Shown here: piece by piece, positions 435 through 24,037 of the stretch
How positions within the stretch are numbered: position 1 is the first letter of the stretch
Layout: each line of letters opens with the position of its first letter
Assembly (NCBI GenBank): GCA_947499275.1
Contig: CANMNM010000001.1
Location: 1-42,339 of the forward strand
Reading direction: 5' to 3'
Length of the DNA: 42,339 nucleotides
DNA from: Actinomycetota bacterium
GTDB taxonomy: Bacteria; Actinomycetota; Actinomycetes; S36-B12
Position numbers and translations under genes: made by a program
Notes under the pieces: generated by a model
Seen by the model: only the letters and a program-made list of their open reading frames with translations
Told to the model about the DNA's origin: nothing
The model's database searches: none

Positions 435-875
435 ATGCGTAAGACATTTACCATGTCAACAGCACTCCTCATTGCCGGGCTATCCCTTGCCGGGTGCTCG
501 AGTAGCGATTCCGAAACCAGCGCCTCCGAATCTCCCATGGTTGGCGGTATGACCGAATGCACCAAGGAGGCCGTACAACCATTCGTTGACGAAGCCGCAC
601 TGACCCTTGTCACCGATGGGTCAACCGACACCATGATGCCCATTGATGACCTTCAGTGCGCTGATGGTTGGGCAGTAGCGAATGGCACTCTCGGGCCAAA
701 GGATGCACCCGCCGATGGACCTCAAGGTGCTCCGACCAAGTTTATTTTCCAAGCCGAGGGTCAATTCTGGATCCTCAAGAATCAAGAGCAGGTATGTGGC
801 ACCGGTGGCGAAAACTACTCCGCTGATGCGCAGGTCCCCGAGGCCATTTACGCGGATGCGTGCGTTTTTGGCTGA
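435..875 (+). CDS. secreted lipoprotein of unknown function (4 Cys in the mature part)
   Basis: The signal peptide ends in the lipobox LSLAGC. The mature protein has four Cys and no recognisable family. A hairpin terminator follows at 901-940. Confidence 0.7.
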   Translation: MRKTFTMSTALLIAGLSLAGCSSSDSETSASESPMVGGMTECTKEAVQPFVDEAALTLVTDGSTDTMMPIDDLQCADGWAVANGTLGPKDAPADGPQGAPTKFIFQAEGQFWILKNQEQVCGTGGENYSADAQVPEAIYADACVFG

Positions 876-900
876 TCCAAAAACTAAGTCGGGCATAAAA

Positions 901-940
901 GAAACCCGGTTACCTCAGTGAAGAGGTAACCGGGTTTCGG
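901..940. terminator. bidirectional intrinsic terminator (15-bp stem, 6-nt loop), copy 1 of 2 identical copies
   Basis: The sequence gaaacccggttacctc-agtgaa-gaggtaaccgggtttcgg sits between convergent genes. It is A-rich on the left and T-rich on the right. An identical 40-mer occurs at 23955-23994. Confidence 0.8.
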
Positions 941-969
941 CATTACTGAGAAAGCAATAAACACTTAAC

Positions 970-1575
970 TTACGGCATTGTCAGTGCAGGAATATCGACA
1001 TCTGCTGGGACGAGCACAACGTTAATTACGTGGATAACACCGTTACCAGCAATGACATCTTCAAATAGAACGTCGAATCCGTTGACAGTGACACCGTTTG
1101 ATGTTGAGAAAAGTACGTTCTGTCCTTCAACGGTTTCGATTACGACGTCACCGTCTGCAATGTCAGCAGCCAGAACCGTGCCTGGAACAACGTGGTAGGT
1201 CAGAATTTTGACGAGAGCATCTTTGTTCTCTGGGAGCAACAGTGCGTCAAGAACGCCTGCTGGGAGCTCTGCGAAAGCCGCATTTGTTGGTGCGAACACG
1301 GTAAAGGGGCCTTCACCATTCAGTGTTTCGACCAAGCCAGCCGCATTAATTGCAGCTACCAAAGTGCTGAAATTGGCTGGGTCTTTTGAAGCAAGGTCCA
1401 CGATTGTCTCGGAGAAGATTGCCCCTGTTTCATCAGCATCTTCAATAGAACCCTTTGAGAGTGCAGCACTTGACTCAGCTGTTGTTGCTTGATCAGATGA
1501 ACTGCTGCATGCTGACAAAGTCAGTGCAGCTGCAACCGAAACCACCGCAATTGCGGTGCGACGCATTACTCGCAT
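970..1575 (-). CDS. fasciclin (FAS1) domain lipoprotein, paralog A
   Basis: The N-terminus [23 protein letters not shown] has a lipobox. The FAS1 motifs [15 protein letters not shown] and NGVIHVINVVLVP are present. The start was chosen by alignment with paralog B (24038-24634); the tracked ORF extends to 1632. Confidence 0.85.
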   Translation of the reverse strand: MRVMRRTAIAVVSVAAALTLSACSSSSDQATTAESSAALSKGSIEDADETGAIFSETIVDLASKDPANFSTLVAAINAAGLVETLNGEGPFTVFAPTNAAFAELPAGVLDALLLPENKDALVKILTYHVVPGTVLAADIADGDVVIETVEGQNVLFSTSNGVTVNGFDVLFEDVIAGNGVIHVINVVLVPADVDIPALTMP

Positions 1576-1689
1576 TTTTTTCTCCTTGATACGCCGGATT
1601 TTCCTGAATTTTCGTAGTGGTAACAATTGCAATTACGCCAAACCCTAACATCGTCCATCGTCAATAACCGATAGTTTATCTAAATCCCA

Positions 1690-1841
1690 TAGGTGCTTCC
1701 AACTCGTTTATCTTCCAAGCGGAGGGTCAGTTCTCGATACCGAAAAGCCCTGAGCAGGTGTGCGGTACCGGTGACGCCAACTACTCCACTGACGCGCAGG
1801 TCCCCGATGCCCTTTACGCGGATGCGTGCGTTTTTGCCTGA
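1690..1841 (+). pseudogene. 3-prime remnant of a paralog of the 435-875 lipoprotein gene
   Basis: The in-frame translation GASNSFIFQAEGQFSIPKSPEQVCGTGDANYSTDAQVPDALYADACVFA* matches the last ~50 aa of the 435-875 product. A stop codon lies just upstream and there is no start. Similarity continues ~20 nt past the stop, then ends. Confidence 0.75.
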
Positions 1842-1904
1842 TACAAAACCTGAGCCAGACCTACAGGTTGCCACCGGATCCGTCCAGCATCCAGACTCGA
1901 GAAA

Positions 1905-2399
1905 CTAAGCCAACTGAGAAGATTTTCCCTGTAAATTGATGACCATCGGTTGATGCAGGATTCCCGCATACGTTTCTACTGGACCTTCCGGGTGCCACCC
2001 CAAATACTCGAAGAATCGAACATTGGGCAGTTGAATGTGCGCGTGCATGACCAACCCACCATTAGCCGACGCTTGAGCGACCGCCTCTTGCACAAGTTCA
2101 AAACCAAGGCGAGAGCTTCGGTGCGCCTTAAGAACCGCAAGCCGATCCCCCTGCCATTGCTCGTATCCAGCGTCAAGGGGATACAAGCGGACCGCTCCCA
2201 CGGTCAGCCCATTTATGACACCAACGAGGTGGGTCGTGCTCAGTTCACTATCTCGACTGTCCTCGTCCGTGTCTGTAAAGATTCCCTGCTCAACAACGAA
2301 TACGTCGCGTCGTACGTCAAAATGCTCACGTCGGCGCTGGCGATTATCAACAGTCACAATTCTGGTGATGTCTCCCTGGCTTCCGCTGGGGTTGGTCAA
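1905..2399 (-). CDS. GNAT N-acetyltransferase, MSMEG_0567/Sll0786-like
   Basis: The core reads VFVVEQG...AVRLYP...LAVLKAHRSSRLG...F. The TTG start overlaps the stop of the upstream radical SAM gene (TTGA). Its position next to the radical SAM gene matches Nit1C clusters. Confidence 0.7.
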   Translation of the reverse strand: MTNPSGSQGDITRIVTVDNRQRRREHFDVRRDVFVVEQGIFTDTDEDSRDSELSTTHLVGVINGLTVGAVRLYPLDAGYEQWQGDRLAVLKAHRSSRLGFELVQEAVAQASANGGLVMHAHIQLPNVRFFEYLGWHPEGPVETYAGILHQPMVINLQGKSSQLA

Positions 2400-3713: not shown

Positions 3714-4367
3714 TTAATCCATATCTGTGCGGATCGCCTCAGCCTCGTCTAGCCATTCCTGGCGATTGCTCATTTCCAAGACCAGTGAAGCCTGAGATTC
3801 GCTTCTCGGGTAAACCTCAATCCGGAAAATAGGAGACCCTGTGGCCGGGTCCACATCGACCGAGCGCACTAATCGGGTCTCAGAGCTCAGATGAAGGTCA
3901 ACCCACTGATGCGACATGGCGTATCCGAGGGTTCCACCGTCCGGGGTTTGGATGGGCGCCCATTTCTCGCCGGCTGCCCTAGCGCGGTCAGTGATCACCT
4001 CTGCCTCGTGATCAACGCCCTGGGCAAGCAAGACGCGGTAACGCTGGGCCAGCGCCGCATCCACTATGAGTTGGTCATCAAGATTGGTCAAGACAATTCC
4101 CTGGCTACTTGCCAAACCATGGAGCCGGGCAATTGCCGGTGTGCGGATACTCACTAGGTCATCGACGCTTTGGGCTCGCTCAGAAAGGAAATCTCCGAGC
4201 AGTCCAACGAGACGGACCGAGCGCTGATAGATGTCTGGGTCAACTTGAGCGAGTGGGTAAAGATTTCGTTCCGCTTCAGTGAATCGGATGACCAGGGCCG
4301 CCAGTGCGTCGCCATTCTCCACGCCCGCGCGGGGCACTTCATTCATTTCCATCGCCTCATTTTCCAT
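3714..4367 (-). CDS. hypothetical protein (no recognisable family)
   Basis: A 217-aa ORF heads the rSAM-GNAT transcription unit. It is divergent from the carbamate kinase gene. I recognise no motifs. Confidence 0.5.
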   Translation of the reverse strand: MENEAMEMNEVPRAGVENGDALAALVIRFTEAERNLYPLAQVDPDIYQRSVRLVGLLGDFLSERAQSVDDLVSIRTPAIARLHGLASSQGIVLTNLDDQLIVDAALAQRYRVLLAQGVDHEAEVITDRARAAGEKWAPIQTPDGGTLGYAMSHQWVDLHLSSETRLVRSVDVDPATGSPIFRIEVYPRSESQASLVLEMSNRQEWLDEAEAIRTDMD

Positions 4368-4430: not shown

Positions 4431-5447
4431 ATGGAAAGGAAATCTACATTGATGCTTTCCACACCGGCACCTTTGGCCGTCGTTGCCTTGGGAGGAAATG
4501 CGATCACTCGTGAGGGGCAGGACGGGACATACCCCGAAATGCTAGCCAACTGCCAAGAAATGGCCGCGTCCGTGTGCGCACTGCGCGAAGCCGGTTGGCG
4601 AGTAGTGATCACACATGGAAATGGTCCACAGGTAGGAAACCTGGCCATCCAGCAGCATGCCGGATCCGCTGAAGTACCTGCACAGCCGTTATTTGCCCTG
4701 GGAGCAATGACCCAAGGGTTAATTGGGCACCTGATCCAAATGGCGCTGCTCAGTGTCCACAATCAACAACTCGGACCGGTCGTTGGAGTAGTTACTCATG
4801 TGATTGTTGACCGCCAGGACGAAGCATTCGATCGGCCTTCGAAACCAATAGGTCCTTTTTATTCACTTCAGGAGGCCCAAGCGCGTTCAGACCTCACCGG
4901 GCATCCGATTATTGAAGATTCTGGGCGCGGGTACCGCATCATCGTTCCATCACCACGCCCTCAAAGAGTTGTGGAAGGGGACGCAATATCCCGACTCTCA
5001 CAAGATGGGTATCTCGTCGTCGCGGGTGGTGGCGGTGGGATCCCTGTCGTGGAAATTGATGGGACACTCGAGGGCATCGAGGCTGTTGTCGACAAAGATC
5101 GAAGTGCCGCACTACTCGCTACTTATCTGGAAGCCGACGCTCTCCTTCTCGTCACCGGTGTCGAATGCGTCCTCGCTGACTTCGGGAAACCTACCCAAAG
5201 GGAAATTCATTTGGCCGATGCGGCACAAATGCGGGAGTACTCGAGGCAGGGGCAATTTCCTGCAGGCAGCATGGGGCCCAAGGTCGAGGCTGCTCTCGAC
5301 TTTGTTGACGCTACTGCTGGATTCGCCGTTATCACCGACGCCTCGTCGATGGCTTCAGCTTTAGGAGCATTAGGAACAGGCGTAACCCCTGGGACACGGA
5401 TCGTTCGAGAGATCCTCGAGTTACCAAAGCAAGGAGCCCTTCAGTGA
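4431..5447 (+). CDS. arcC: carbamate kinase
   Basis: The motifs VVALGGNAI and VITHGNGPQVG and a C-terminal AAK fold are present, and the length is typical. The stop overlaps the fdrA start (GTGA). Confidence 0.88.
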   Translation: MERKSTLMLSTPAPLAVVALGGNAITREGQDGTYPEMLANCQEMAASVCALREAGWRVVITHGNGPQVGNLAIQQHAGSAEVPAQPLFALGAMTQGLIGHLIQMALLSVHNQQLGPVVGVVTHVIVDRQDEAFDRPSKPIGPFYSLQEAQARSDLTGHPIIEDSGRGYRIIVPSPRPQRVVEGDAISRLSQDGYLVVAGGGGGIPVVEIDGTLEGIEAVVDKDRSAALLATYLEADALLLVTGVECVLADFGKPTQREIHLADAAQMREYSRQGQFPAGSMGPKVEAALDFVDATAGFAVITDASSMASALGALGTGVTPGTRIVREILELPKQGALQ

Positions 5448-6985
5448 CTCTCATATTTACTATCAACATGTACCCAGACACTTATCTTGATTCGGTACTT
5501 CAGATGTCGGGAACGCGAGAGATGGAGCAGTCTGAAGGAGTTCAGTGGGCTTCGGCGGCGATGAGCACGGTCGCGAATATCGAGACTCTTATTTCCCGAG
5601 GATTCCCCAGCGGCGAACTCGAGGGGGCTGGCCCCGGTGACCTTTTCATTGCCGTTGAATCCCTTGATTCCAGCAGTGGGGAACGAGCCATCGAAAACGC
5701 CCACCGGGTGATGTTTGCCGCCCGCAATGAAGCTAATCCAATGGCCGAGGCGATCCCTACTTCCCTAGATGAAGCTCTCACTCGTCAACCAAACTCAAAT
5801 ATCGCCATCATTTCGGTGCCAGGGGAATATGCAGCTCTCGAGGCACACAAGGCTCTGGCCAAGGGCCTCGATGTTCTTCTTTTCAGCGATGGGGTCACCC
5901 TCGAAGATGAGATCGCCCTCAAGGACCATGCCGCCGCTCGAAACCTTCTCGTAATGGGACCGGGAGCCGGGACTGCTGCCCTTGCCGGGATCGGACTGGG
6001 CTTTGCAAACGTTGTGCGCCCAGGACCTGTGGGCGTGGTCGCCGCAGCGGGTACCGGAGCCCAGGAAGTGATGGCTCTACTCCACCGCTGGGGTGTCGGT
6101 GTATCTCACGTGATCGGGCTTGGCGGTCGCGACCTCAGTGACAAAATCGACGGGCGCATGGCCCGACTTGCCATTCGTGCCTTGCGAAACGACTCGCAGA
6201 CGAAGGTTATTCTTTTCGTGTCTAAACCTCCTAGTGAACGCGTTGCCAAAGAGGTCATGGCTCTGGCTGACGGCTCACCTATGGTGGCAGCTTTCATGGG
6301 TATAGATATGACCACTGCGACCCCGCCGGGTGTAACACTCGCCAACACTCTCGAGTCTGGCGTACTGCGCACCTTGGAGGTTCTCGGTGAAAAGCTTCCT
6401 GACACCTCGGCCATTGCAGGTCCAGATATCCCTTCAGCCTTGGCCAAGATTTCGGCTGATCGCACCCTAATCCGGGGCCTCTACTCCGGTGGAACCCTGT
6501 GCTACGAGGCTCTGGTTATTCTTGCCGAAACCTTTTCGTCACCGGTGTATTCCAACACACCTATTAATAAGAAACTCGGAATGCCAGCCCCTGCTGACGC
6601 CAGCATCCTGCTCGATCTCGGTGAGGAGGAGTACACGCGGGGACGACCACATCCGATGATTGACCTGGAAGCACGCATATCTTTTCTAGAAGAAGCAGGT
6701 GCGGACCCTCAGGTTGCCGTAATTCTCATGGACCTAGTCCTGGGGCATGGAGCTCACCCTGATCCAGCGGCCGTGTTCGCTCCGATCTGTCAGAAGATCA
6801 TGGAAGCCGGCGGGCCCCAAATCGTCGTATACGTATTGGGAACCGATTTAGACCCCCAGCATTACACGTCGCAAGTGGCTGCCCTTGCCAATGCTGGATG
6901 CCTGGTTCCTGCAACAAACGCCCGCGCCGCCATCCTCGCAGCGCACTTAGCAGACCGTAATTTGTCTCATGAAACACTGGCGTAG
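5444..6985 (+). CDS. fdrA: FdrA family protein (succinyl-CoA-synthetase-like fold)
   Basis: The protein is collinear with E. coli FdrA. Shared motifs include YPDTYLDSV, ISVPGEYAALEA, LLFSDGVTLEDEI, LLVMGPGAGT, GLGGRDLS, FVSKPP and GRPHPMID. Confidence 0.85.
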   Translation: MTLIFTINMYPDTYLDSVLQMSGTREMEQSEGVQWASAAMSTVANIETLISRGFPSGELEGAGPGDLFIAVESLDSSSGERAIENAHRVMFAARNEANPMAEAIPTSLDEALTRQPNSNIAIISVPGEYAALEAHKALAKGLDVLLFSDGVTLEDEIALKDHAAARNLLVMGPGAGTAALAGIGLGFANVVRPGPVGVVAAAGTGAQEVMALLHRWGVGVSHVIGLGGRDLSDKIDGRMARLAIRALRNDSQTKVILFVSKPPSERVAKEVMALADGSPMVAAFMGIDMTTATPPGVTLANTLESGVLRTLEVLGEKLPDTSAIAGPDIPSALAKISADRTLIRGLYSGGTLCYEALVILAETFSSPVYSNTPINKKLGMPAPADASILLDLGEEEYTRGRPHPMIDLEARISFLEEAGADPQVAVILMDLVLGHGAHPDPAAVFAPICQKIMEAGGPQIVVYVLGTDLDPQHYTSQVAALANAGCLVPATNARAAILAAHLADRNLSHETLA

Positions 6986-8157
6986 TGACTTTAGACGGAC
7001 GGTTAGCACTTCTTACTTATTCCACGAAACCGCGTGGTGGTGTTGTCCACTCCCTTGAATTGGCAGAGGCCTTGAACCGCCAAGGGGTAGATGTTCATCT
7101 GTTTGCCTTGGGTTCACCCGGAACTTCTTTTTTTCGACCGACCTCCGTGCCGTTCACCCTTTTTCCGGCAGTGGATCAAGCGCAGAGCCTGGATGAAAAA
7201 GTTTTCGCATCGGTTGCTTCGATGGCCGAAGGTCTAGCCGGACTCCGTGACTCGTTTGATCTCATCCATGCACAGGACTGCATTTCGGGCCGGGCTGCCG
7301 TGGCGGTGTCCAGATCCGGACCAATCATCCCCGTTATTCGCACTGTCCACCATGTCGATGACTTCACCACTCAGGCGCTTATCGATTGTCAGCGACAAGC
7401 GATCGTAGAACCGGATCGGATCCTCGTGGTCAGTCGTACTTGGCAGAGCACCCTTCAGGAGGATTACGGGGTCCACGCTGACATTGTCCCTAATGGCGTG
7501 CGACCCGAACGGTTCCCGCAGATCTCAGATGCGGAAAAGATGGCCCTACGGGCATCAGTAGGAATCACAGACGGAAGCATGATTCTTGCTGTAGGCGGAG
7601 TCGAGCCACGCAAGGGCAGTCGCGAACTCTTTCAAGCAATGGGGATACTTAAAAGTCGCGGCCACCGGGTTCACTTGGTCATACTCGGGGGCCACTCCTT
7701 CCAAGACTACGAGGAGTACCGACAGGAAGCTCTGAGTCTGTTGCCTGAGCTAGGTTTGGAACTCGGTCGTGATGTGATCACCGTGGGCACGGTTGACGAG
7801 CAAGCCCTAGGCCAATGGTTCCGTGCTGCAGATGTCCTTGCTTATCCATCCACAAAAGAAGGGTTTGGCCTCGTTGCTCTCGAGGGCCTCGCCGCAGACC
7901 TTCCGGTAGTGGCAAGCAGCATCCCGGTTTTCAAAGAATTTCTTACCGATGGGGTAAGTGCGTTGCTCCCCGAAACGGGCAATCCAGAGGCAATTTCTGG
8001 TGCGATCGAATCCATTCTATTGAGTAGCGATCTGAGGTCACGACTTATTGCGGGTGGCCAATCTGTCCTCGCTGGTTACACGTGGGAAGCATCGGCAACC
8101 CGACACTGTGACATCTATCGTGAGGTACTGGAGAAATTTGGTCGAGCACCTAACTAG
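6985..8157 (+). CDS. GT4-family glycosyltransferase, MSMEG_0565-like
   Basis: The N-terminus reads LALLTYSTKPRGGVVHSLELAEAL. The C-terminal GT-B motif is YPSTKEGFGLVALEGLAADLPVVAS. The GTG start overlaps the fdrA stop by 1 nt. Confidence 0.75.
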   Translation: MTLDGRLALLTYSTKPRGGVVHSLELAEALNRQGVDVHLFALGSPGTSFFRPTSVPFTLFPAVDQAQSLDEKVFASVASMAEGLAGLRDSFDLIHAQDCISGRAAVAVSRSGPIIPVIRTVHHVDDFTTQALIDCQRQAIVEPDRILVVSRTWQSTLQEDYGVHADIVPNGVRPERFPQISDAEKMALRASVGITDGSMILAVGGVEPRKGSRELFQAMGILKSRGHRVHLVILGGHSFQDYEEYRQEALSLLPELGLELGRDVITVGTVDEQALGQWFRAADVLAYPSTKEGFGLVALEGLAADLPVVASSIPVFKEFLTDGVSALLPETGNPEAISGAIESILLSSDLRSRLIAGGQSVLAGYTWEASATRHCDIYREVLEKFGRAPN

Positions 8158-8543
8158 TGATCGTGATCGTGGTCATGATCATGGTCGTGCCCGTGGTCAT
8201 GATCATGGTCGTGCCCGGCTGGACGCAATGCAAGATCTCGCGCTCGACCTGACAGATCACTTGCAGTAACTAATTCACTGCTAATACTTACCTGTTCCAA
8301 GGCACTCAACCAGCACTGATAATAAGAGTATTCCTCGCCCGGTGTTTCCTGCTCCTCCCAAGTGGCGATCGCTGAAATTAATTCAGCGCGAAATTCTTCC
8401 CACGTGAAAGCACCTGACTCATGCAACGACATGACGAGTCCGAATGCTCGGCTCTGCCACGGCTCCTCAAAAACCAGTTCGCCATTGGACCTGGGTGGCG
8501 CTGCCGGACCATCAATGTCAAAATCAATCGTTGCAGTCATCAC
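8154..8543 (-). CDS. nitrile hydratase accessory (activator) protein with C-terminal His/Asp repeat tail
   Basis: The beta-subunit-like N-terminus reads [35 protein letters not shown]. The gene lies immediately downstream of NHase alpha with an ATGA overlap. The tail is [20 protein letters not shown]. Confidence 0.75.
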
Positions 8544-9136
8544 GCACTCACCTGAGCTACGCCCACCATGGCGTCACGGGTCACGAGAGCAGCGAGTTCA
8601 GCTTCGGATAATTCTTCAGTACCCGGGGGTCGCTGAGGTAACACGAAGAATCGCACCTCACTGCTGCTGTCCCACACGGTTATCTCCGTATCTGTGGGCA
8701 ATTCCAGTCCCATCTCAGCCAACACTGTTCTCGGTTCGCGCACGACGCGTGACCGATAGGCAGGATCTTTGTACCAAGCGGGTGGAAGGCCTAGTAGCGG
8801 CCATGGGTAGCACGAACATAAAGTGCACACAACAACGTTGTGTACTTCGGCGCTGTTCTCCACTACAACGAGATGCTCACCTTGAGGTCCCTTGAACCCT
8901 AATTCTGCAATCGCACCCGTGCCGTCGTCGAGGAGTCGTTGCTTGAATTCGGGATCCGTCCAAGCTTTGGCAACAACTTGGGCTCCATTGAGTGGTCCCA
9001 CATCTTTCTCGTAAGTCTTGATAAAAGTGTCCATCACCTGTGGGTCAACGAGCCCACGCTCTACCAGAAGCTGCTCAAGAGCCTCGGTCCGAAGATTCAT
9101 CGGGATCCGATCACTCGATGGTTGTGCTTTACTCAT
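8540..9136 (-). CDS. nthA: nitrile hydratase alpha subunit, cobalt type
   Basis: The metal-centre motif [21 protein letters not shown] is present; Thr and Tyr at the variable positions indicate the Co type. The length is 198 aa. Confidence 0.93.
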
Positions 9137-9816
9137 GATGCAGCCTCCAAATAGTCCTCGTACAGGTCGGTATTAAGTGTGAAATTTTCTGTATTTTCTT
9201 GATATAGCTCACGCGAATCGAAACTCACCGTGTACACCCATTGGGCGTTTTCAGCGATGAAATGTGCGTGTGTATCGGGAAGAATCTGCGCCGGTTCAAC
9301 GATGGCAACTGTCCCGACATGTCCTTGGGTGTACTTCTGCAGGCGCGTGTGACCTGGAGCATTCATCGTTTTTGCCCGAACTCGCTGGCCCACGCTGAAC
9401 TTGCGCGGTGCATCAATTTGTCGAATCGATCCCCCCGCAGTCGGGGCGTAATCGGGTTTATTGGATTCAGGTACAGGTGGCTCGTCCACGTGACCCCCCG
9501 CGATATTCGCAGCTCTCGCCTCAACTGCTCCCGGTGCAATGATTGCACTGTCCAGCAATAAATTCTCAGCGCCGTACAGCCACCGACCGTAGTAACCATC
9601 ATCGAAGTAGTGCTCTCGATCTAGTCGATTCATGGCATGCCTGAACGCGTCAAGATTTGACCCAGAAACTCTCATCGACAATAGGGCTAAGGCAAAGGCC
9701 CGCCCCTCCCATTTCTCAGGAAAAACCACCTCGTCGGGGTCAATAATCGGGGCTCGTCCCCAACCAGAATCGCCACCCATGTCGGCCACACCACTAGCCG
9801 GTTGAATTTCTATCAT
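9133..9816 (-). CDS. nthB: nitrile hydratase beta subunit
   Basis: The motifs [24 protein letters not shown] and a C-terminal SH3-like part are present. The ATG at 9816 is preceded by GAGGAG; the tracked ORF extends to 9918. The stop overlaps the alpha start (ATGA). Confidence 0.85.
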
Positions 9817-9876
9817 CAAACTCTCCTCATCTTTGGAAACCTGACGGCCCCTTAACCTCACGACTAAAGACCTGAT

Positions 9877-9915
9877 GCCTTGTGGGTGTTGAACAACGTC
9901 CAACACCCACAAGGC
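9877..9915 (-). other. 15-bp perfect stem-loop between the Sll0783-like gene and NHase beta
   Basis: The sequence is gccttgtgggtgttg-aacaacgtc-caacacccacaaggc. No U-tract follows on the transcribed (minus) strand. Confidence 0.5.
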
Positions 9916-9922
9916 CAAGCAA

Positions 9923-10411
9923 CTACAGGGTCCAGGTGTTCATCTGGAATGCGCCCTCACTCCAAGCTGTCAAGGCGGTGTCGAGCACGTCAAGCGGGTT
10001 GAACGGGATAACCCCTGGAATGAGATCATCTTCGCCGAATCCGTAAAGCGCACCCATCGCAAAGCGACATGCGTAAATCTTCGCGCCTTCTTTCATGAGC
10101 GTCTTGAGCTGCTCATTGATTGCGAGGTGACCTGGAAATGCGGCCATCCCAACACCGGGGTAACCGCGAGTGCCTGAGGCTGCGAGAACTCCGGGTCCAT
10201 AAAGGACGATACTGACTTCGAATCCTTTACGCACCAAACGCGTTGACGTCAACAAGTTGACTAACAGAACCGAACCTTCGTAGGGAACCGTGTGGATAAA
10301 AATGTATGCTTTCTGTCCAGCTTTGGCCTTAATGTCAGGGAATAGTTTTTCCTCTGCATTAAATAATGACTCTCCGTCTGCCGGTAGAGATCTGATTACG
10401 GTTTTTGGCAT
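9923..10411 (-). CDS. MSMEG_0572/Sll0783-like nitrogen-starvation response protein
   Basis: The motifs are LFNAEEKLFPDIKAK, FIHTVPYEGSVLLVNLLT, IYACRFAMGALYG and NPLDVLD...NTWTL. The ATG at 10411 is preceded by GGAGGAG; the tracked ORF extends to 10540. Confidence 0.7.
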   Translation of the reverse strand: MPKTVIRSLPADGESLFNAEEKLFPDIKAKAGQKAYIFIHTVPYEGSVLLVNLLTSTRLVRKGFEVSIVLYGPGVLAASGTRGYPGVGMAAFPGHLAINEQLKTLMKEGAKIYACRFAMGALYGFGEDDLIPGVIPFNPLDVLDTALTAWSEGAFQMNTWTL

Positions 10412-10446
10412 TACTCCTCCATCGTGTTGTGTTGTGTTGTGTTCAA

Positions 10447-10701
10447 CTAGATCGCCGGTCCCTCCGGCGACGTCTGTTTGGCCCAGTTCTTCCTGTGGCT
10501 TCCGGGCATCGCCACCATGATCCGTCTGCGTAGTCCCCACGGCATGATCCGGTAAATCGGAATGAATACACCGGTCCAGAAGAATTCACCACTCGTGCTT
10601 GGCGCCTCAATTCCGTGATTGCGTGCAACACGCGCTTGTGCATCACGCAATAAATAAAATTGGGCATTCTCGCGCAGCCACTTCGATGGTGATTTCATCA
10701 A
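10447..10701 (-). CDS. small protein in the MSMEG_0570 position of the cluster
   Basis: This 84-aa ORF has a start overlapping the flavoprotein stop (ATGA). Its position between the flavoprotein and Sll0783-like genes mirrors MSMEG_0569-0570-0572. The family assignment is positional only. Confidence 0.5.
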   Translation of the reverse strand: MMKSPSKWLRENAQFYLLRDAQARVARNHGIEAPSTSGEFFWTGVFIPIYRIMPWGLRRRIMVAMPGSHRKNWAKQTSPEGPAI

Positions 10702-12041
10702 CGCCCCAACTGCGACGCAACACCCTTTTGGGCAGCCACCGCGATCGGCTCATTGAGTGCACCTATTGGTGGTGAGTACACATTTTCCATGGTGGCCAGG
10801 TCGTACAGCGTCAATCCAGCCTTGACCGCTACTCCGAGGAAGTCAGCTCTTTCTTTGATTCCTTCTCCGCCCACCATTTGGGCTCCGATAAGGCGTAGTG
10901 TTCCTTTTTCGGCGATGAGCTTCACCCGAACTTTTTTAACTCCCGGGTAGTAACGAGCTCGCGAGATACCGTCAGCCACCGCCACCACGTGCGGCACGCC
11001 CAACGCATTCGCTGTCACTTCGCCAAGTGCAACTCCGCCGATCATCCACTTCCCGGCCACCATGCCCCAGGGGACATACACAGGGTTGTACGTTCGGGTC
11101 CCACCAGCAGCATTAGCGCCGGCCACTTTCCCCTGGGCGTACGCGTGGCTCCCGGTAAGACCTTGGAGCGGTAAACCGCCGAGACCATGGGGAATCTCGC
11201 ACACATCACCGCTGGCCCATACGCCGGCCGCTGATGTCTGCATGCTTCCGTCAACGATGAGCCCGCCCGTGCTGCCAGTTTTTAATCCAGCCGCGATCGC
11301 CAACTCATTATTTGGGACCTTGTGCGTGGCCACAACAACAAGATCGCATTCGATGTCTCCCCCTGATGTGCGAACTCCGCGTACGGCGCCTGACTCATCG
11401 CCGAGAAACTCTTCCAAGGTTGTGTTCCAGTGCATGGTGACACCAAGCTCCGTCCACGACTCATGGACGAGTTCGACAATGTCTGGATCTGCCACTTCCC
11501 CGAGCGCCCATGGGTTCGGATCGATCACATGAGTTTCTATTCCCCGGTGAGCTAGAGCCGTGATCATTTCAACGCCGAGAGGACTGGCTTCCACAACGAC
11601 CGCCTTTTTGACGGTGTCAAGACGTTTATCCCACTCCATTGCTTCACGGATATTCTTCACGTAATAAAGCCCATCAAGGTCCCCACCGGGCACTCCCGGG
11701 TTCGCATAGGAGAAACCCGTCGCGATGACGAGAGAGTCGTAGTGCATCGGCTGGCCAGATTCGATCTGAATAGTCTTCGAACTTGTGTCTATTGAAGTGA
11801 TCTTCGTCTGGTACCGGATATCAATGCCCGCATCGACGTAAGCCTGCTTATCAGCCAGAAATAATGCTTCAAAACTTGGAATTTCTTTTCCATGTACGAA
11901 GGGAATTCCGCAGGGACTGTAGGCGACGTCTTCATTCTCGGTGAAGACGGTGACTGATGCCGAGGGGTCCACTGCTTTGGCACCACCGGCGGCTCCGAGT
12001 CCCGCGCCTCCGCCTCCGATGACGATAATATGCTGTGCCAC
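10698..12041 (-). CDS. FAD-dependent pyridine nucleotide-disulfide oxidoreductase (MSMEG_0569 position; NADH oxidase/CoA-disulfide-reductase-like)
   Basis: It has an N-terminal IVIGGGGAGLGAA dinucleotide fold and a single redox Cys in YSPCGIPFV. A second Rossmann motif (VVVEASPLGVE) and GVWASGD are also present. Confidence 0.8.
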   Translation of the reverse strand: MAQHIIVIGGGGAGLGAAGGAKAVDPSASVTVFTENEDVAYSPCGIPFVHGKEIPSFEALFLADKQAYVDAGIDIRYQTKITSIDTSSKTIQIESGQPMHYDSLVIATGFSYANPGVPGGDLDGLYYVKNIREAMEWDKRLDTVKKAVVVEASPLGVEMITALAHRGIETHVIDPNPWALGEVADPDIVELVHESWTELGVTMHWNTTLEEFLGDESGAVRGVRTSGGDIECDLVVVATHKVPNNELAIAAGLKTGSTGGLIVDGSMQTSAAGVWASGDVCEIPHGLGGLPLQGLTGSHAYAQGKVAGANAAGGTRTYNPVYVPWGMVAGKWMIGGVALGEVTANALGVPHVVAVADGISRARYYPGVKKVRVKLIAEKGTLRLIGAQMVGGEGIKERADFLGVAVKAGLTLYDLATMENVYSPPIGALNEPIAVAAQKGVASQLGR

Positions 12042-12193
12042 TTATTCTCCCATCCACCAAAAAGTAAAGATCCTTAGACATACACGATAGACTACTTTTC
12101 ATACACTATGTTGAATAATCCAAAAAAAATCCATAAGCCTCATTTGACGGTTTTGGGCATCAAACAGACAAGATCTAACGAAGGGAGGACCCG

Positions 12194-12820
12194 GTGGCGC
12201 GCACTACCACTAAGAATGAAACCGCAATAAAGCCAAAATCAGATCCGCCCCTCGAGCTCGAAGAGATCGTCAGCCTGATCGGTCCAAAAATAGCGGGATT
12301 GCGCAAGGCTCAGGGCCTATCCCTTCAGCAACTCGCTTTGACGAGCGACGTCTCGGCCGCGGCCATTCATAAGATTGAACGCAGCGGGATGGTCCCCACG
12401 GTGACAACTCTTCTGAAGTTGGCGGGTGCACTTGGGGTTCCGGTTAGTTACTTCGTTGCCGAAGATGACCCGCACCCTGAATCCGTACACCTCACCAAAT
12501 CTGAATCCCGGAGACCCGTTTACACGCCACATGATGGACTCGCCCTAGGAGGCATCAGTGGGTCCTACCGCCAATTTCAAGCGGCGGCAGCAGTCGCAAG
12601 CATGTCGGCGGGAGCAAATAGTGGTGTCAAACTACTCAAGCATCCGGGGGAAGAGTTGGTCTACGTGCTGAGCGGGCGGGTTCGCTTTACCGTCGGTAAT
12701 GATGAGTACGCCCTCAAAGCAGGGGATTCCTTACACTTCAGCGGAGATGTGCCGCATCACTGGGGAAATTTAGGCAAGGTGACTGCCCAGTTGATCTGGT
12801 TCGCTTTGAGGAATGGCTAG
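12194..12820 (+). CDS. XRE-family HTH regulator with C-terminal cupin sensor domain
   Basis: The HTH reads LSLQQLALTSDVSAAAIHKIERSG. The cupin motifs are HPGEELVYVLSG and GDSLHFSGDVPHHW. Confidence 0.85.
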   Translation: MARTTTKNETAIKPKSDPPLELEEIVSLIGPKIAGLRKAQGLSLQQLALTSDVSAAAIHKIERSGMVPTVTTLLKLAGALGVPVSYFVAEDDPHPESVHLTKSESRRPVYTPHDGLALGGISGSYRQFQAAAAVASMSAGANSGVKLLKHPGEELVYVLSGRVRFTVGNDEYALKAGDSLHFSGDVPHHWGNLGKVTAQLIWFALRNG

Positions 12821-13237
12821 TCGTGGCGGGACAATGTCCAGATTGACAACACTTATCTCCGGTGATGTTTTCAGCGTATTAGTCACGTAGCAAACACGCT
12901 CCGCTGATGCAATGAGTTTGGCGGCGGTCTCCTCGGGGACCGGGATTCTTACACTGATCTGAATTCGGCTGAACCTGGGTCCTTCATACGTTCCCGTCAC
13001 ATCCACTTCAATACTTGATAGTTCAAGATCTCTTTTGCGTGCCGCATACGCAAGTGACATCACGAAGCACGATGCCACAGCGCTAAGTAGCAGGTCTGTC
13101 GGCTGAGGGCCCGTGTCCGTGCCCCCTACCCGAACAGGTTCATCGACCCGACTCTGAAAATCGCCGGCCATCACGTCAACTTGGAAGCCACCAAGCCATC
13201 GGGCGGTCACCAATCGATCTGCAGCCATGTAATCCAC
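12770..13237 (-). CDS. OsmC/Ohr family protein
   Basis: The protein has PTDLLLSAVASCF and a second Cys in ERVCYVTNTL, the typical two-Cys OsmC arrangement. Its 3-prime end overlaps the regulator gene by 51 nt. Confidence 0.75.
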   Translation of the reverse strand: MDYMAADRLVTARWLGGFQVDVMAGDFQSRVDEPVRVGGTDTGPQPTDLLLSAVASCFVMSLAYAARKRDLELSSIEVDVTGTYEGPRFSRIQISVRIPVPEETAAKLIASAERVCYVTNTLKTSPEISVVNLDIVPPRLAIPQSEPDQLGSHLA

Positions 13238-13319: not shown

Positions 13320-14405
13320 GTGGACCGCACTCGAATCCGTGAACTTTTATTTCTGTTCCTTGCCGTAGCCGCGCTCAATATCGCTGGGTGGGGGACGTAC
13401 GCCTATTACTTACGTGCTGAACCGGCTAATACCGCTTACGTGGGAGTAGGGCTTGTGGCGTATTTCCTAGGGGTAAGACATGCCTTTGATGCGGACCACA
13501 TCGCAGCGATTGATGACAGTGCAAGATTAATGGTCAACCAGGGACGTCGCCCGATTGGTTTAGGGTTCTACTTTGCAATTGGTCACTCGACAGTGGTCTT
13601 GCTGATGTGTGTGGGAGTGAGTGTTCTTGCCGGAACCTTCGTCTCGTCCGGCCAAATCTATCTGCAAGACGTTGGTGGCCGGATCGCCGCTCTGGTAGCA
13701 GCCATTTTTCTCTTGGTCGTCGGATTTTTAAACTTTAAGGTTCTACAACGGCTTCGAAACACCAAACGAGATCTGAAAAGCGGTGCGATCAGCCCGGCTG
13801 AGTTGGAGTCACGTCTCTCTGGTGCATCGCCTTTTGCTCGACTCCTTGGTGGTAAAACAATGAACCGGCTGCAATCAAGTTGGCAGATGTTTCCCATCGG
13901 TTTCATCTTTGGACTCGGGCTTGAGACTGCTTCAGAAGTCACGCTACTCAGCCTCTCCGCCGCGGGTGCCGCGGCAGGTGACCTACCAATTGGCGCCATT
14001 CTCGCTCTGCCCCTTTTGTTTGCGGCAGGTATGACGCTGTGTGATTCCATCGATTCGGTCACCATGGTCCATGCGTACAGTTCGGCAAGCACTACGGCCC
14101 ACGACCGACTGTTTTTTAACATTCTCATGACGGGAATCACAGCGACGATCGCGACATTTGTTGGGGCGATCTACCTCTCTCAGGTTCTCGTTGATGAAGT
14201 TGGAATTCGCGTCCTAGAACCAATTGCCCAAATAAATGAGCATTTTGAGATACTGGGTTACGTCATTGTTTCCGTCTATTTTGTCGTTTGGGCGTGTGCG
14301 TTTTTGGTGTGGCGCAGATCAAAGAAACGCGCCAAGTCCAATGTTGTCGGCGAGTACCGCAGGGCCATAAGTGCACCGTATGCCAAGTCCAGTCCTGATG
14401 AGTGA
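13320..14405 (+). CDS. NiCoT (HoxN/HupN/NixA/NhlF) family nickel/cobalt transporter
   Basis: The TM2 signature RHAFDADHIAAIDD and the second signature FGLGLETASEV are present. The protein is about 8 TM segments and 361 aa. Confidence 0.85.
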   Translation: MDRTRIRELLFLFLAVAALNIAGWGTYAYYLRAEPANTAYVGVGLVAYFLGVRHAFDADHIAAIDDSARLMVNQGRRPIGLGFYFAIGHSTVVLLMCVGVSVLAGTFVSSGQIYLQDVGGRIAALVAAIFLLVVGFLNFKVLQRLRNTKRDLKSGAISPAELESRLSGASPFARLLGGKTMNRLQSSWQMFPIGFIFGLGLETASEVTLLSLSAAGAAAGDLPIGAILALPLLFAAGMTLCDSIDSVTMVHAYSSASTTAHDRLFFNILMTGITATIATFVGAIYLSQVLVDEVGIRVLEPIAQINEHFEILGYVIVSVYFVVWACAFLVWRRSKKRAKSNVVGEYRRAISAPYAKSSPDE

Positions 14406-15109
14406 CCAAGCTCCGCGAGCCGGGCGCGGGAAACGCGCGCTGCTCCTTCCTGTCCGCGAGAGCATTCCTGCAAAAGAGTGTGAAGTGTTTCAATCGACTG
14501 CCCCACCGCGGCCCATCTCAGAAATGCGCGCGAAATCTCATGCGTAGCTGCGGCACGCGCGATCTCCTGGCGCATCTCCCGGTTATGACCACCAAGCATC
14601 GAGTCAACTACAAGAATCCCCGCCGCAACATCGTCACCTGCTGGCGTTAATCCAATCCCGCGGCCAATGACCGATGCGCAGGCACCGGCGAGATCACCCA
14701 CTTGCAAGAAACTCGCCAGTTCTTCCTCCAATAGGTGGCCCGGTGATGAACCCAAAGTGAGATCGGGGACGTGACCCAATACGGTTGCGAGAAGTCCAGT
14801 TGCTCGATTGATATCCGGGTTCGCCGCGGGTACCCACAGATGCTCAGAGACGGGCACGATTTGATCGACCACGCACAATTCTCCATCACGCACTTCTACC
14901 GGATCGCCTAAGGAACCCAGTGGCAAAGTGTGCATTCGGGCATGGAGAGGGCCCGAAGGGACGCTAGCGATAGTGAGTGCGAATACGTGTTCGCCCACCT
15001 GGATATACATCGCCTTACGAAAGCTGGCAATGACCCGGCCCGCAGAGTTTCTTTCGAGGCCTTCGCGAACTCCCTCCCCCGCGTCAAGGGGAAGGGTCAC
15101 TCCGTTCAT
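14276..15109 (-). CDS. DUF2877 (YlbF-like) protein
   Basis: The gene follows the DUF1116 gene with a 4-nt overlap, as in E. coli ylbE-ylbF. It contains GRGIGLTPAGDD. The family call rests mostly on position and size. Confidence 0.5.
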   Translation of the reverse strand: MNGVTLPLDAGEGVREGLERNSAGRVIASFRKAMYIQVGEHVFALTIASVPSGPLHARMHTLPLGSLGDPVEVRDGELCVVDQIVPVSEHLWVPAANPDINRATGLLATVLGHVPDLTLGSSPGHLLEEELASFLQVGDLAGACASVIGRGIGLTPAGDDVAAGILVVDSMLGGHNREMRQEIARAAATHEISRAFLRWAAVGQSIETLHTLLQECSRGQEGAARVSRARLAELGHSSGLDLAYGALMALRYSPTTLDLARFFDLRHTKNAHAQTTK

Positions 15110-16521
15110 TTTCCCTGGTTAACAAGCTCGACTAGGGCTTGCCCAAACCCTTCAAGCGGCGCCGTCGCGACGCCAGCTCCTATCTGCCCTACCCCTGACG
15201 AAAGATGAAGAATTCCTGTGGTGACCTTGGGGCTAATTCCAGTCTCAACCACTTTTCGCACATCCACGCCAAGTGGGGTGCCTCGAAAGCCCATCGTCGG
15301 CAATTTGAATCGGCTGCTTTCTGACACACATATCCTTCTCATATCTTCGGTGGCCCGGGCAGCATCAGACATCGACCCACCGAGAAAAGCCGCCACCGCT
15401 GGAGACCCTGCTGCAGCAGCCCCCCCAAGCCCAATCAACTCGAGTACCGCACTGTCACCCATGTCAAGGGCGGCATCTTCCGAGCTGAAACCCGCGTAAT
15501 ACAACGCATCTGCCACCGGAGGAGCCGGACAAATATGCCAACGAGGTGAATCCCCCACCTTCACGCCAAAAGTGGTTCCGTTGCGCGCCATGGTCGTGAC
15601 AATCGTTGAACCAGACACTTGCTCCGCTGCGAGCATCAGTGACTTTGCCGCCGCCATAGCAATTGTCAGAAAGAAGAGGTGATTCTTGGACAAATAATGA
15701 GCGAACGCCACCGAGCCTTCATCATTTCCCAATCGGGCAATTGATGTAAGCACATCGCGGATCAAAAGATTTGTCGTCGCCTGCGTACGCATATGAACGT
15801 CGTCGCCCATTTGCACGCCCTGTGATGCTAAGGACAGGATGTCAATCGGACCACTTTCCTTGAGGATCTGTGCGATTCTCGGCTGGGCAACCTCCCGTAA
15901 GAAGATCAGCCTTTCTATCGCCGCTGGCGACTCACGCCCAAACCACGGAACATCCCCCGGACCCTGGTTGACGGGCGCGAATCCAACTGTCCCAGACTCC
16001 GCATTCTCAGCTATCCACACCGGGGTCGTAGGTCCGATAGCTGAAGCCATCGGCACGACGGTCCCATGATCATTGGCGGCAGCAAGTGCGACGGAGCCAT
16101 CCGCGAGCAACCGGTCAGCTGTTTCAACATCTTGCGCCCAACCTTCCGCAACTGTTGCAGCGCGCATCGATCGCCGTACCGGATCACATACGAATTCATA
16201 AGCAATGGGTGGACCGGCATGCAGCAGGGTGCGATCGGGAAGTGTAGACAATGCATCCCGTGCGGCCGCCACTCCAATGAGCATCGGAACTCCCTTGTCA
16301 ATCCTGCGAATTGCTTCGACATTCGCCTTGTCGTATTCCAGAGAATTCATCGCGTAAGAATCAGTGAGCGCCCTGAGAAGAACCGGTGAATTTCCCGAAG
16401 GGACGCGCCAGTCAACGTGAATCACCTCAGCATCTTGTTCGCGGATCGCTTCCGCGAACAATGGCAATCCAACGTTGATTACTGCCGCGTTCTCTGGCAA
16501 CTTATGCAGGGTTGTTTCCAT
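15106..16521 (-). CDS. DUF1116 (YlbE-like) protein
   Basis: The N-terminus ENAAVINVGLPLFAEAIREQDAEVIHVDWRVP is typical of YlbE-type proteins. The length is 471 aa. It partners FdrA and the carbamate kinase in this window. Confidence 0.7.
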   Translation of the reverse strand: METTLHKLPENAAVINVGLPLFAEAIREQDAEVIHVDWRVPSGNSPVLLRALTDSYAMNSLEYDKANVEAIRRIDKGVPMLIGVAAARDALSTLPDRTLLHAGPPIAYEFVCDPVRRSMRAATVAEGWAQDVETADRLLADGSVALAAANDHGTVVPMASAIGPTTPVWIAENAESGTVGFAPVNQGPGDVPWFGRESPAAIERLIFLREVAQPRIAQILKESGPIDILSLASQGVQMGDDVHMRTQATTNLLIRDVLTSIARLGNDEGSVAFAHYLSKNHLFFLTIAMAAAKSLMLAAEQVSGSTIVTTMARNGTTFGVKVGDSPRWHICPAPPVADALYYAGFSSEDAALDMGDSAVLELIGLGGAAAAGSPAVAAFLGGSMSDAARATEDMRRICVSESSRFKLPTMGFRGTPLGVDVRKVVETGISPKVTTGILHLSSGVGQIGAGVATAPLEGFGQALVELVNQGK

Positions 16522-22121: not shown

Positions 22122-23129
22122 ATGGGCCCAAAGGACACTGCCCGAGCACAACTTGATGACGTTGCAGCAGCTGTGGCAGGTAATAGCGCCATTGCGGCCA
22201 AGCGCGAAATAGGTCTCGTCAGCGAGGCCTTAGGGTCGTCGGGTTTCGTCGAGGGTCCCGGGGATGACGGCGCGGCCATTGCGATTGGTCACACACTAGG
22301 AATCGTATGCGGAGAAGCAATGTGGCCACCATTTGTCGCGGCAGACCCTCGCGGGGCTGGAATAGCCGCAATTCTTGCCAACGTAAACGACGTTGCTGCG
22401 ATGGGTGGCCTGCCCTTGGCAATTGTTGACACCATAGCTGCGGATGAAGCCACAGCGCGTGAAATTCTCAGTGGTCTCGCCTATGCCTCATCCTTGTACC
22501 GAGTCCCCATTGTTGGCGGACACCTCACGCTCACAGATGGGCCGCCCAGCTTGTCTGCATTTGCGCTCGGCCACACTGACAATCTTTTATCGACCACGAA
22601 TGTTATGGCAGGTCAAGATCTTGTCGTGGCCGCGTGCATTGAAGGATCAATGCATCCAAAATTCCCGTTCTTTGCTTCTTTTACTGAACGAGGCGACAGT
22701 CTCGGTGATGACGTGCGTCTTCTGGCACAAATTGCCAAAGACGGCATTGCTGTCGCCGCCAAGGACATCAGCATGGCCGGACTTATCGGCTCACTGGCCA
22801 TGCTCTTGGAGTGGGGGTCTTTCGGTGCAGAGCTCAACCTCGACGTGCTCCCAAGGCCTGAAGGCGTCTCGCTGGCTGACTGGTGCAACTGTTTCCCATG
22901 CTTTGGGTTCATCATGTGCTGTGAACCATCCAGAACTAATGAATGCGTCGAAGTTTTCACTCGCACCGGTCTCGCAGCTGCCAAAGTTGGGTCCATAAAT
23001 GGCTCAGGCAGCATCGAGATCCTCGCTGGCGGAGAACGCCGAGAGGTAATGAATTTGCTTGAAGAGACGGTTACCGGCCTAGTTCGATCACCGAGTAACA
23101 GCTCAGCAGTTCCCGTGAAAAACACCTAG
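22122..23129 (+). CDS. AIR-synthase-related (PurM superfamily) protein, Sll0787/MSMEG_0566-like
   Basis: The motifs GPGDDGAAI, ANVNDVAAMGG and PIVGGH are present. The ATG at 22122 is preceded by GGAGGA; the tracked ORF start at 21852 would overlap the divergent ComA-like gene. Confidence 0.75.
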   Translation: MGPKDTARAQLDDVAAAVAGNSAIAAKREIGLVSEALGSSGFVEGPGDDGAAIAIGHTLGIVCGEAMWPPFVAADPRGAGIAAILANVNDVAAMGGLPLAIVDTIAADEATAREILSGLAYASSLYRVPIVGGHLTLTDGPPSLSAFALGHTDNLLSTTNVMAGQDLVVAACIEGSMHPKFPFFASFTERGDSLGDDVRLLAQIAKDGIAVAAKDISMAGLIGSLAMLLEWGSFGAELNLDVLPRPEGVSLADWCNCFPCFGFIMCCEPSRTNECVEVFTRTGLAAAKVGSINGSGSIEILAGGERREVMNLLEETVTGLVRSPSNSSAVPVKNT

Positions 23130-23994: not shown

Positions 23995-24037
23995 TACAAA
24001 TCAGTTAACTATAAGAACCGAACTTAAATGACCGAAC

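Follow-up and report, generated by a model that had tools for sequence, protein, structure and literature searches.

Which enzyme converts the nitrile in a gene cluster that resembles the Nit1C/gpr systems and apparently lacks their nitrilase is the question raised by the stretch of DNA analysed here, positions 1 to 42,339 of contig CANMNM010000001.1 (assembly GCA_947499275.1) from a freshwater Actinomycetota bacterium of the S36-B12 lineage, referred to as the window. An earlier note, made from the letters alone, had described a minus-strand order of flavoprotein, 84-aa protein, MSMEG_0572/Sll0783-like protein (0572), nitrile hydratase (NHase) beta, NHase alpha and accessory protein, with the 84-aa and 0572 genes 35 nt apart, and had interpreted the NHase as a non-orthologous displacement of the canonical nitrilase. 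Gene order and gap were both confirmed. The window is, however, a member of a distinct and widespread sister family of Nit1C/gpr, not a canonical cluster in which one gene has been swapped, and NHase is the majority state of this family. The core of the proposal survives and becomes stronger: different members of one cluster family use non-homologous enzymes for the nitrile-converting step next to 0572.

The three genes at 8154-9816 look, from their sequences, like a complete and catalytically intact cobalt nitrile hydratase; family models and Pfam domains identify them as NHase genes, and the cobalt type assigned previously was upheld by the VCTLCSC motif and cobalt-type PDB homologues. NHase alpha aligns over its full length, with an intact metal motif, to cobalt-type NHases, the closest PDB entries being 4ob1, 1v29 and 3qxe (E 1e-78 to 1e-92). 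The open reading frame (ORF) of NHase beta extends mechanically to 9918 but its true start is the ATG at 9816, with GAGGAG upstream; the protein scores 2.8 bits under its NCBIfam cut-off, whereas both Pfam beta domains exceed their thresholds. Alignment to its best match, chain 3qyg_B of the Pseudomonas putida cobalt-type enzyme, begins at SGVADMGG and conserves DAFRH, YYGRW and GHTR, and equivalents of R52, Y68, W72, L48 and F51 are retained together with the GHTR arginine. The activator ends, after a conserved RPA, in a His/Asp-rich repeat tail (window 8154-8220). Of 68 related activators, 54 have this tail, which probably binds cobalt. Cobalt for the enzyme is likely supplied by the nearby nickel/cobalt transporter, a gene detected mainly in Nanopelagicales loci. 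By NHase chemistry, the product would be an amide.

No nitrilase was found in the window by family scans, tblastn or six-frame searches with a hidden Markov model (HMM), as the earlier note had stated. NCBIfam and Pfam models detected no CN-hydrolase among nearly all window ORFs of at least 150 aa, excluding shadow frames of longer genes, tblastn with two Nit6803-family nitrilases from annotated plasmids returned nothing at E<=1e-3, and in hmmsearch --max an HMM of three nitrilases reached no better than E = 1.2 against the 431 stop-to-stop six-frame segments of 50 aa or more. As positive controls, the Klebsiella nitrilase, 0570 and 0569 proteins scored 572.8 (TIGR04048), 118 and 637 bits, respectively, against their own NCBIfam families. 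Strings matching C[WY]E occur only in non-coding frames or in AllF, in agreement with the claim that no ORF carries the nitrilase CWE pattern. The canonical nitrilase had also been placed between the small 0570 gene and 0572. This holds for the Mycobacterium smegmatis numbering but not for Klebsiella pK2044, in which the co-linear order is 0572, Nit6803 nitrilase, radical S-adenosylmethionine (SAM) protein, GNAT, AIR-synthase-related (AIRS) protein, 0570 and 0569, with the nitrilase immediately after 0572 and ahead of the radical SAM gene. The published listing of Pseudomonas nitBCDEFGH implies the same arrangement as in Klebsiella. Since the canonical nitrilase adjoins 0572, the NHase in the window holds the nitrilase's position.

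The occupancy of this position was investigated in two samples of related loci, each taken with flanks of up to 10 kb and together comprising 160 loci. In the genome sample, one genome per species was scanned with the 0572-like protein and the best 80 of 322 relatives were retained; the metagenome sample consists of the best 80 loci, out of at least 548 relatives, ranked by similarity to the flavoprotein of Methylocystis. The genomes nearest to the window are Candidatus Nanopelagicales metagenome-assembled genomes (MAGs), and the genome sample extends through Nonomuraea, Streptosporangium, Planosporangium, Asanoa, Streptomyces chiangmaiensis and Lapillicoccus to many Acidimicrobiia. NHase alpha lies 700-920 nt downstream of 0572 in 66 of the 80 genome loci. 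An Amidohydro_2 protein (PF04909) is encoded without NHase in six, the two occur together in none, and a Nit6803 nitrilase is found in none. The mutual exclusion of NHase and Amidohydro_2 in this sample is significant by Fisher's test, uncorrected for phylogeny (p = 4e-7). Metagenome loci comprise 17 of NHase type, 20 of Amidohydro_2 type and one of nitrilase type, again with no locus carrying two types; none of the three enzymes was detected in the 42 others, which include many short contigs. The tally of nitrilase against NHase proposed earlier recovered both, together with a third alternative, Amidohydro_2, which had not been foreseen. Amidohydro_2 genes were located in 29 loci in all (for example L022 10480-11346, L071 11394-12260 and L083 6990-7847), and a further context of this type was found independently through precomputed Pfam labels; the protein matches no NCBIfam model and has no sequence relative in the PDB.

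A nitrilase lying just outside the window had been named as the observation that would make the arrangement ordinary, and it was sought through the relatives. Among the 160 loci the Nit6803 nitrilase occurs only in L101. A second nitrilase locus, the Methylocystis iwaonis plasmid (L082), was fetched separately from these samples. It is of the same extended cluster type as the window and encodes a flavoprotein, small protein and 0572 at 59, 42 and 70% identity, together with AllG, an FdrA-like protein, 0565, ComA and XcbA/D-like genes; its Nit6803 nitrilase adjoins the radical SAM gene and no NHase is present. A separate CN-hydrolase gene, Nit2/omega-amidase-like and convergent on the GNAT gene, was observed in one Nanopelagicales MAG (L017 18379-18972) and in no other locus nor in the window, and we regard it as incidental.

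Typed loci number 111, of which 80 are NHase, 29 Amidohydro_2 and two nitrilase type, none having two. Alternation without co-occurrence makes the hydrolytic module look interchangeable and supports non-orthologous displacement across the cluster family, although not as a one-off event at this locus, NHase being the majority form. In a midpoint-rooted neighbour-joining tree of the 111 typed flavoproteins, calculated without bootstrap support, the Amidohydro_2 type appears at least five times and the two nitrilase loci nest in a small clade whose other members are NHase type. As the nitrilase loci are nested among NHase ones, NHase may be the older state within the family. NHase identity follows flavoprotein identity across loci (Spearman 0.64 for alpha and 0.73 for beta), a correlation that fits co-inheritance. 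In one Micromonosporaceae MAG (L038 10974-13833), the slot after 0572 contains genes which, from reading by eye alone, resemble LarE, LarB and LarC, the proteins of nickel-pincer cofactor synthesis, instead of NHase.

The constant element beside the exchangeable enzyme is the trio of flavoprotein, 84-aa protein and 0572, found in nearly every related locus in which the stretch is covered; the small gene lies between the other two in all 160 loci examined. Family membership of these products, on which the earlier note had rested its comparison, was established in part. The product of 9923-10411 belongs to the 0572 family; its gene has a GGAGG 5 nt upstream of the ATG, 2022 homologues were returned in a search with the protein, and the AlphaFold2 model (mean confidence score pLDDT 81.7) has DsrE, DsrF, YchN and TusBCD as top Foldseek matches at probability 1.0. 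A phmmer search of 0572 against the PDB gave designed-ankyrin matches only, which are spurious. The product of 10447-10701 does not belong to the 0570 family. It has no NCBIfam or Pfam match at E<0.01, tblastn with Klebsiella 0570 found no match in the window, and a remote relationship was rejected when a profile of 14 homologues aligned to Klebsiella 0570 gave an hhalign probability of 1%. The ORF is nevertheless a real gene, with a family of ~1058 members in which W, R, F, P, Y, PGSH and W are invariant. Its ATG overlaps the flavoprotein TGA as TGATG. Its AlphaFold2 model is small and helical and matched nothing in a structure search against the PDB. The flavoprotein, likewise, does not belong to the MSMEG_0569 (NitH) family whose position it was noted to occupy, having in common with Klebsiella 0569 only the GGG dinucleotide-binding motif (BLASTP E = 0.15). 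It resembles instead CoA-disulfide reductase (CoADR) and NADH oxidase (Nox), with NoxA-3, CoADR and CoA-persulfide reductase as PDB matches and a single active-site Cys (YSPCGIPF) that is invariant in the homologue alignment.

Directly after the 0572 stop codon lies a strong hairpin (-52.6 kcal/mol minimum free energy over 121 nt, z = -5.7), none of 200 shuffled sequences folding as well. Strong hairpins follow 0572 in most of the related loci inspected, including loci without NHase; their sequences are unrelated, and that of Methylocystis carries a U-tail and is a classical terminator. We interpret the hairpin as probably a terminator, attenuator or 3'-end stabiliser closing the flavoprotein/small-gene/0572 operon, with the trio probably forming a transcription unit of its own. 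A scan of 8000-12400 for sigma-70 and terminator consensus sequences was uninformative.

The trio and the NHase genes lie within a neighbourhood of ~21 kb (1905-23129), the genes of which form at least five units on both strands (Table 1). A regulator of XRE helix-turn-helix plus cupin type is divergent from the flavoprotein operon, and in most loci it is the neighbour of the flavoprotein gene. One operon (16539-22038) encodes homologues of all five enzymes of coenzyme M synthesis and continues into the AllG- and AllH-like genes; one of the five, the XcbA family member, scores above its curated cut-off. The ATG of the AIRS-like gene at 22122 is preceded by GGAGG. The 217-aa protein, encoded in many clusters between carbamate kinase and the radical SAM protein, was considered as a hidden amidase and set aside on account of its few conserved residues and lack of a family match. 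Many of the longer loci also have Xcb-like, AllFGH-like, carbamate kinase, 0565, 0567 and 0568 genes; a sizeable subset of Acidimicrobiia has no match to 0565, 0567, 0568, AllF or carbamate kinase within the 10-kb flanks. Carbamate kinase was tried as a covariate of NHase, as an amide-to-carbamoyl route would suggest, and is not diagnostic, the pattern being mixed across types.

The neighbourhood is bracketed by direct repeats of roughly 0.8 kb. Positions 725-897 and 1691-1863 are 80% identical, and 895-1618 and 23949-24677 are 82-94% identical at the nucleotide level. The repeated segment is contiguous at 725-1618, whereas the other copy (1691-1863 plus 23949-24677) is split by ~22 kb corresponding exactly to the whole cluster. 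This layout suggests that the cluster was inserted, or is excisable, as a unit. The left edge of the window consists of lipoprotein and fasciclin genes unrelated to the cluster and marks the repeat boundary, and exact-protein look-ups of the genes at this edge found no record. Downstream of the neighbourhood are cysS, ispDF, mshA and a phoU/mtrA-like system, genes that identify the source as an actinobacterium.

Table 1. Features of the window, with strand and best family evidence (paired values are bit score vs family cut-off)
Feature	Position	Strand	Evidence
Left repeat: lipoprotein-tail, terminator, fasciclin; second lipoprotein-tail copy 1691-1863 abuts cluster	725..1863
MSMEG_0567/Sll0786 GNAT (NitE)	1905-2399	-	TIGR04045 88.4 vs 68.45
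MSMEG_0568 radical SAM (NitD)	2396-3655	-	TIGR04043 382.5 vs 303.7
217-aa protein	3714-4367	-	no family match
Carbamate kinase	4431-5447	+	NF009007 277 vs 266
FdrA/AllF-like protein	5444-6985	+	FdrA 404 vs 433
MSMEG_0565-family glycosyltransferase	6985-8157	+	TIGR04047 375.9 vs 259.85
NHase accessory/activator protein, 129 aa	8154..8543	-	TIGR03889 75.8 vs 46; Pfam NHase_beta_N-like match
NHase alpha, cobalt type, 198 aa, VCTLCSC	8540..9136	-	TIGR01323 306.2 vs 249.85
NHase beta, 227 aa	9133..9816	-	TIGR03888 149.4 vs 152.2; Pfam NHase_beta_N 84 bits, NHase_beta_C 95 bits
Perfect 18-bp GC-rich hairpin, no U-tract	9870..9920	-	directly after 0572 stop
MSMEG_0572/Sll0783-family (NitB-like) protein, 162 aa	9923..10411	-	TIGR04044 198.7 vs 109.85
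Small basic helical protein, 83-84 aa	10447..10701	-	no Pfam/NCBIfam match (E<0.01)
CoA-disulfide-reductase/NADH-oxidase-like flavoprotein, 447 aa	10698..12041	-	best NCBIfam: CoA-disulfide reductase 236.8 bits, below cut-off
XRE-HTH + cupin regulator	12194..12820	+	weak PuuR-like match
OsmC/Ohr-like thiol peroxidase	12770..13237	-	Pfam OsmC 76.8 bits; conserved in neighbourhood
HoxN/NixA-type nickel/cobalt transporter	13320..14405	+	TIGR00802 278 vs 333
AllH-like subunit	14276-15109	-	Pfam AllH 74.8 bits, passes threshold
AllG-like subunit	15106-16521	-	Pfam AllG 215.5 bits, passes threshold
XcbC-like	16539-17993	-	412 vs 575
XcbE-like	17986-18993	-	212 vs 450
XcbD-like	18984-20357	-	549 vs 600
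XcbA family	20330-21256	-	338.9 vs 150
ComA/XcbB-like	21253-22038	-	ComA 227 vs 280
sll0787-like AIRS-related protein (NitF-like)	22122..23129	+	TIGR04049 best match, 256.9 vs 321.3; Pfam AIRS, AIRS_C
Right repeat: terminator + fasciclin segment	23949..24677		two fasciclin proteins 79% identical

Combined, these results lead us to favour, with moderate confidence, the explanation that the NHase is the C-N-bond-hydrating module of a ~21-kb neighbourhood sharing four or five families with Nit1C/gpr. The NHase would do the job of NitC, removing a small and probably neutral nitrile made or captured by the cluster, with an amide as its output in place of the acid and ammonia released by NitC. Release or further use of the amide nitrogen would then fall to other enzymes, the AllFGH-like transcarbamylase and carbamate kinase being no more than candidates. 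The constant core of CoADR-like flavoprotein, 84-aa protein and DsrE-like 0572, accompanied by OsmC and by genes resembling those of coenzyme M synthesis, would place the origin of the nitrile in a thiol/persulfide redox context, and we infer such a setting from these constant neighbours and from the peroxide, NADPH and cyanide phenotypes published for Nit1C/gpr.

Several observations weigh against this assignment. No amidase was found in the window. The hairpin between 0572 and the NHase genes means that co-transcription of the NHase is not assured; its expression may depend on read-through or on a promoter of its own, and it may be a separate unit. NHase placement varies, some loci having the genes upstream of the flavoprotein gene or on the other strand, and three of the 80 genome loci are long and have none of the three hydrolase types within reach (a further five are truncated). 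Carbamate kinase does not track NHase, being absent from both nitrilase-type loci, present in 14 of 14 Amidohydro_2-type loci and absent beside AllF in six Nonomuraea loci of NHase type. We know of no Amidohydro_2 enzyme that acts on nitriles, and the three enzymes may not share a substrate. In addition, the trees are neighbour-joining trees without bootstrap values, the samples represent the 80 closest matches per scan, and the role is deduced from sequence and gene context, the substrate and activity of the NHase being predictions.

Hairpin, variable placement and strand, and the loss of NHase from many lineages in which the rest of the cluster persists are what would be expected if the NHase operon were an independent nitrile- or amide-scavenging unit parked in a nitrogen-scavenging island, adjacent to the gpr-like genes through vertical inheritance and having no substrate or pathway in common with them. 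The NHase itself, with the usual hydrophobic pocket residues, looks like an ordinary cobalt-type enzyme. We consider this explanation unlikely, although it deserves to be kept in view, as adjacency is maintained across Actinomycetes, Acidimicrobiia genomes and unassigned soil and freshwater metagenome contigs down to ~61% NHase alpha identity, a nitrile-hydrolysing enzyme takes the equivalent place in the canonical cluster, and an unrelated passenger would hardly be expected to show strict exclusivity with Amidohydro_2 and nitrilase. It is still less credible that the genes are not NHase genes at all and encode thiocyanate hydrolase or another NHase-like protein, an identification we regard as very remote. 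The alpha protein does also match the thiocyanate hydrolase gamma model and NHLP leader models, but it reaches 193.5 bits against a gamma cut-off of 291.45 while exceeding that of the NHase model. Furthermore, beta is one full-length protein and not split chains, the 126-aa alpha chain of thiocyanate hydrolase in the PDB covering residues 136-226 only, and the order beta, alpha, activator is that of cobalt-type NHase operons.

A more specific proposal is that the cluster assimilates cyanide or thiocyanate. Cyanide would be captured as an organic thiocyanate by a coenzyme M-like thiol or persulfide, on which the CoADR-like flavoprotein and the DsrE-like protein would act; NHase would hydrate the thiocyanate to an S-carbamoyl thiol, from which the AllFGH-like proteins would generate carbamoyl phosphate by phosphorolysis, and carbamate kinase would yield NH3, CO2 and ATP. 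All of the enzyme classes needed are encoded together, the flavoprotein resembles CoA-persulfide and CoA-disulfide reductases and 0572 has the DsrE fold. Nit1C is required for cyanide assimilation in Pseudomonas, E. coli AllFGH and AllK free nitrogen from a carbamoyl compound, and thiocyanate hydrolase falls within the NHase family. The route is entirely inferential, however, and we judge it improbable. AllF and AllG are also found in nitrilase-type clusters, carbamate kinase is missing from some NHase-type clusters, and the Xcb-like proteins fall under curated cut-offs, so that coenzyme M itself is unproven. The beta pocket residues match those of enzymes for small neutral nitriles, not sulfonated substrates, and alpha scores as an NHase and not as a thiocyanate hydrolase.

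The assignment of the NHase as the hydrating module of the neighbourhood can be extended, much more tentatively, to the whole bracketed region of ~22 kb, which might encode a single undescribed pathway. In such a scheme, which we consider doubtful, the Xcb-like enzymes would make a coenzyme M-like sulfonate thiol, the flavoprotein, 84-aa protein and 0572 would constitute a dedicated disulfide or persulfide reductase system, and the radical SAM, AIRS-like, GNAT and glycosyltransferase proteins would act with this trio in the production or capture of a nitrile, whose nitrogen would be recovered through NHase and carbamoyl-phosphate chemistry. Carriers of this type of neighbourhood are freshwater Nanopelagicales, soil Acidimicrobiia and several actinomycete genera. 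If true, the scheme would give the long-unexplained Nit1C/gpr core a chemical context and would mean that coenzyme M-type cofactors also occur outside alkene oxidisers and archaea. Four lake MAGs carrying the cluster (L001, L008, L011 and L012) are deposited as 'Bifidobacterium breve', which looks like a mislabel.

A large sister family that keeps four or five core families of Nit1C/gpr and swaps the nitrilase for NHase or Amidohydro_2 supports a nitrile-type intermediate as central to the Nit1C/gpr system and indicates that acid and ammonia are not its obligatory outcome. It also provides new candidate partners, namely coenzyme M-synthesis-like enzymes, an AllFGH-like transcarbamylase, carbamate kinase, a CoADR-like reductase and a small protein family for which there is no model. 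Genetic analysis is feasible in culturable carriers, Nonomuraea, Streptosporangium and Planosporangium for the NHase type and Asanoa (A. hainanensis) for the Amidohydro_2 type. The cluster also occurs in Nanopelagicales, the order to which the most abundant freshwater bacterioplankton belong.

The NHase of the window is comparable to the cobalt-type NHase operons of Pseudonocardia thermophila, Pseudomonas putida NRRL-18668 and Rhodococcus rhodochrous J1, the last with the transporter NhlF. Like them, it has the CTLCSC motif in alpha, conserved Arg, Tyr and Trp residues in beta, an activator that is a homologue of the beta N-terminus, a nickel/cobalt transporter nearby and the gene order beta, alpha, activator. 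Unlike these operons, it is without an adjacent amidase, its activator carries the conserved His/Asp tail and it is embedded beside a DsrE-like/flavoprotein operon in a gpr-like neighbourhood. A precedent for an NHase within a biosynthetic cluster is the toyocamycin NHase ToyJKL of Streptomyces rimosus, which turns a nitrile made by its own pathway into the amide; a radical SAM enzyme is encoded in that cluster too. ToyJKL differs, however, in having three subunits and a deazapurine nucleoside substrate, and there are no accessory families common to both clusters.

Two further systems are represented in part. Bacterial coenzyme M biosynthesis by XcbA-E has been described in Xanthobacter autotrophicus Py2 (PMC9457059), and the window has homologues of all five enzymes in one operon, four of them below curated cut-offs. 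In contrast to the Xanthobacter system, alkene or epoxide genes are absent from the window and the operon runs on into the AllG- and AllH-like genes. In E. coli, AllFGH and AllK, as oxamic transcarbamylase and catabolic carbamate kinase, release nitrogen from a carbamoyl compound (PMC11326118), and FdrA/AllF-, AllG- and AllH-like proteins are similarly encoded with a carbamate kinase in the window. Here, however, the genes are spread over two operons and have no allantoin genes near them: AllF is co-transcribed with the glycosyltransferase, whereas AllG and AllH belong to the transcription unit of the xcb-like genes.

The closest known system is Nit1C itself, which is needed for cyanide assimilation in Pseudomonas, and its M. 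smegmatis form, the cluster MSMEG_0565-0572 named 'gpr', in which 0571 is nitrilase-like and 0569 a flavin oxidoreductase. A full-text literature search retrieved papers on canonical Nit1C and gpr and no description of an NHase-bearing or Xcb-associated form, the NHase-bearing form thus apparently being an undescribed cluster variant. Common to Nit1C and the window are 0572/Sll0783 (NitB), the 0568 radical SAM protein (NitD), the 0567 GNAT (NitE), the sll0787-like AIRS protein (NitF, below cut-off in the window), the MSMEG_0565 glycosyltransferase of the M. smegmatis form and a nitrile-converting enzyme directly downstream of the 0572 gene. The window differs in having no Nit6803 nitrilase, 0570/NitG or 0569/NitH and in distributing its genes over several operons on both strands, in contrast to the co-linear Klebsiella cluster. 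To the shared core it adds the cobalt NHase, the CoADR-like flavoprotein, the 84-aa protein, the Xcb-like and AllFGH-like enzymes, carbamate kinase, OsmC and the nickel/cobalt transporter.

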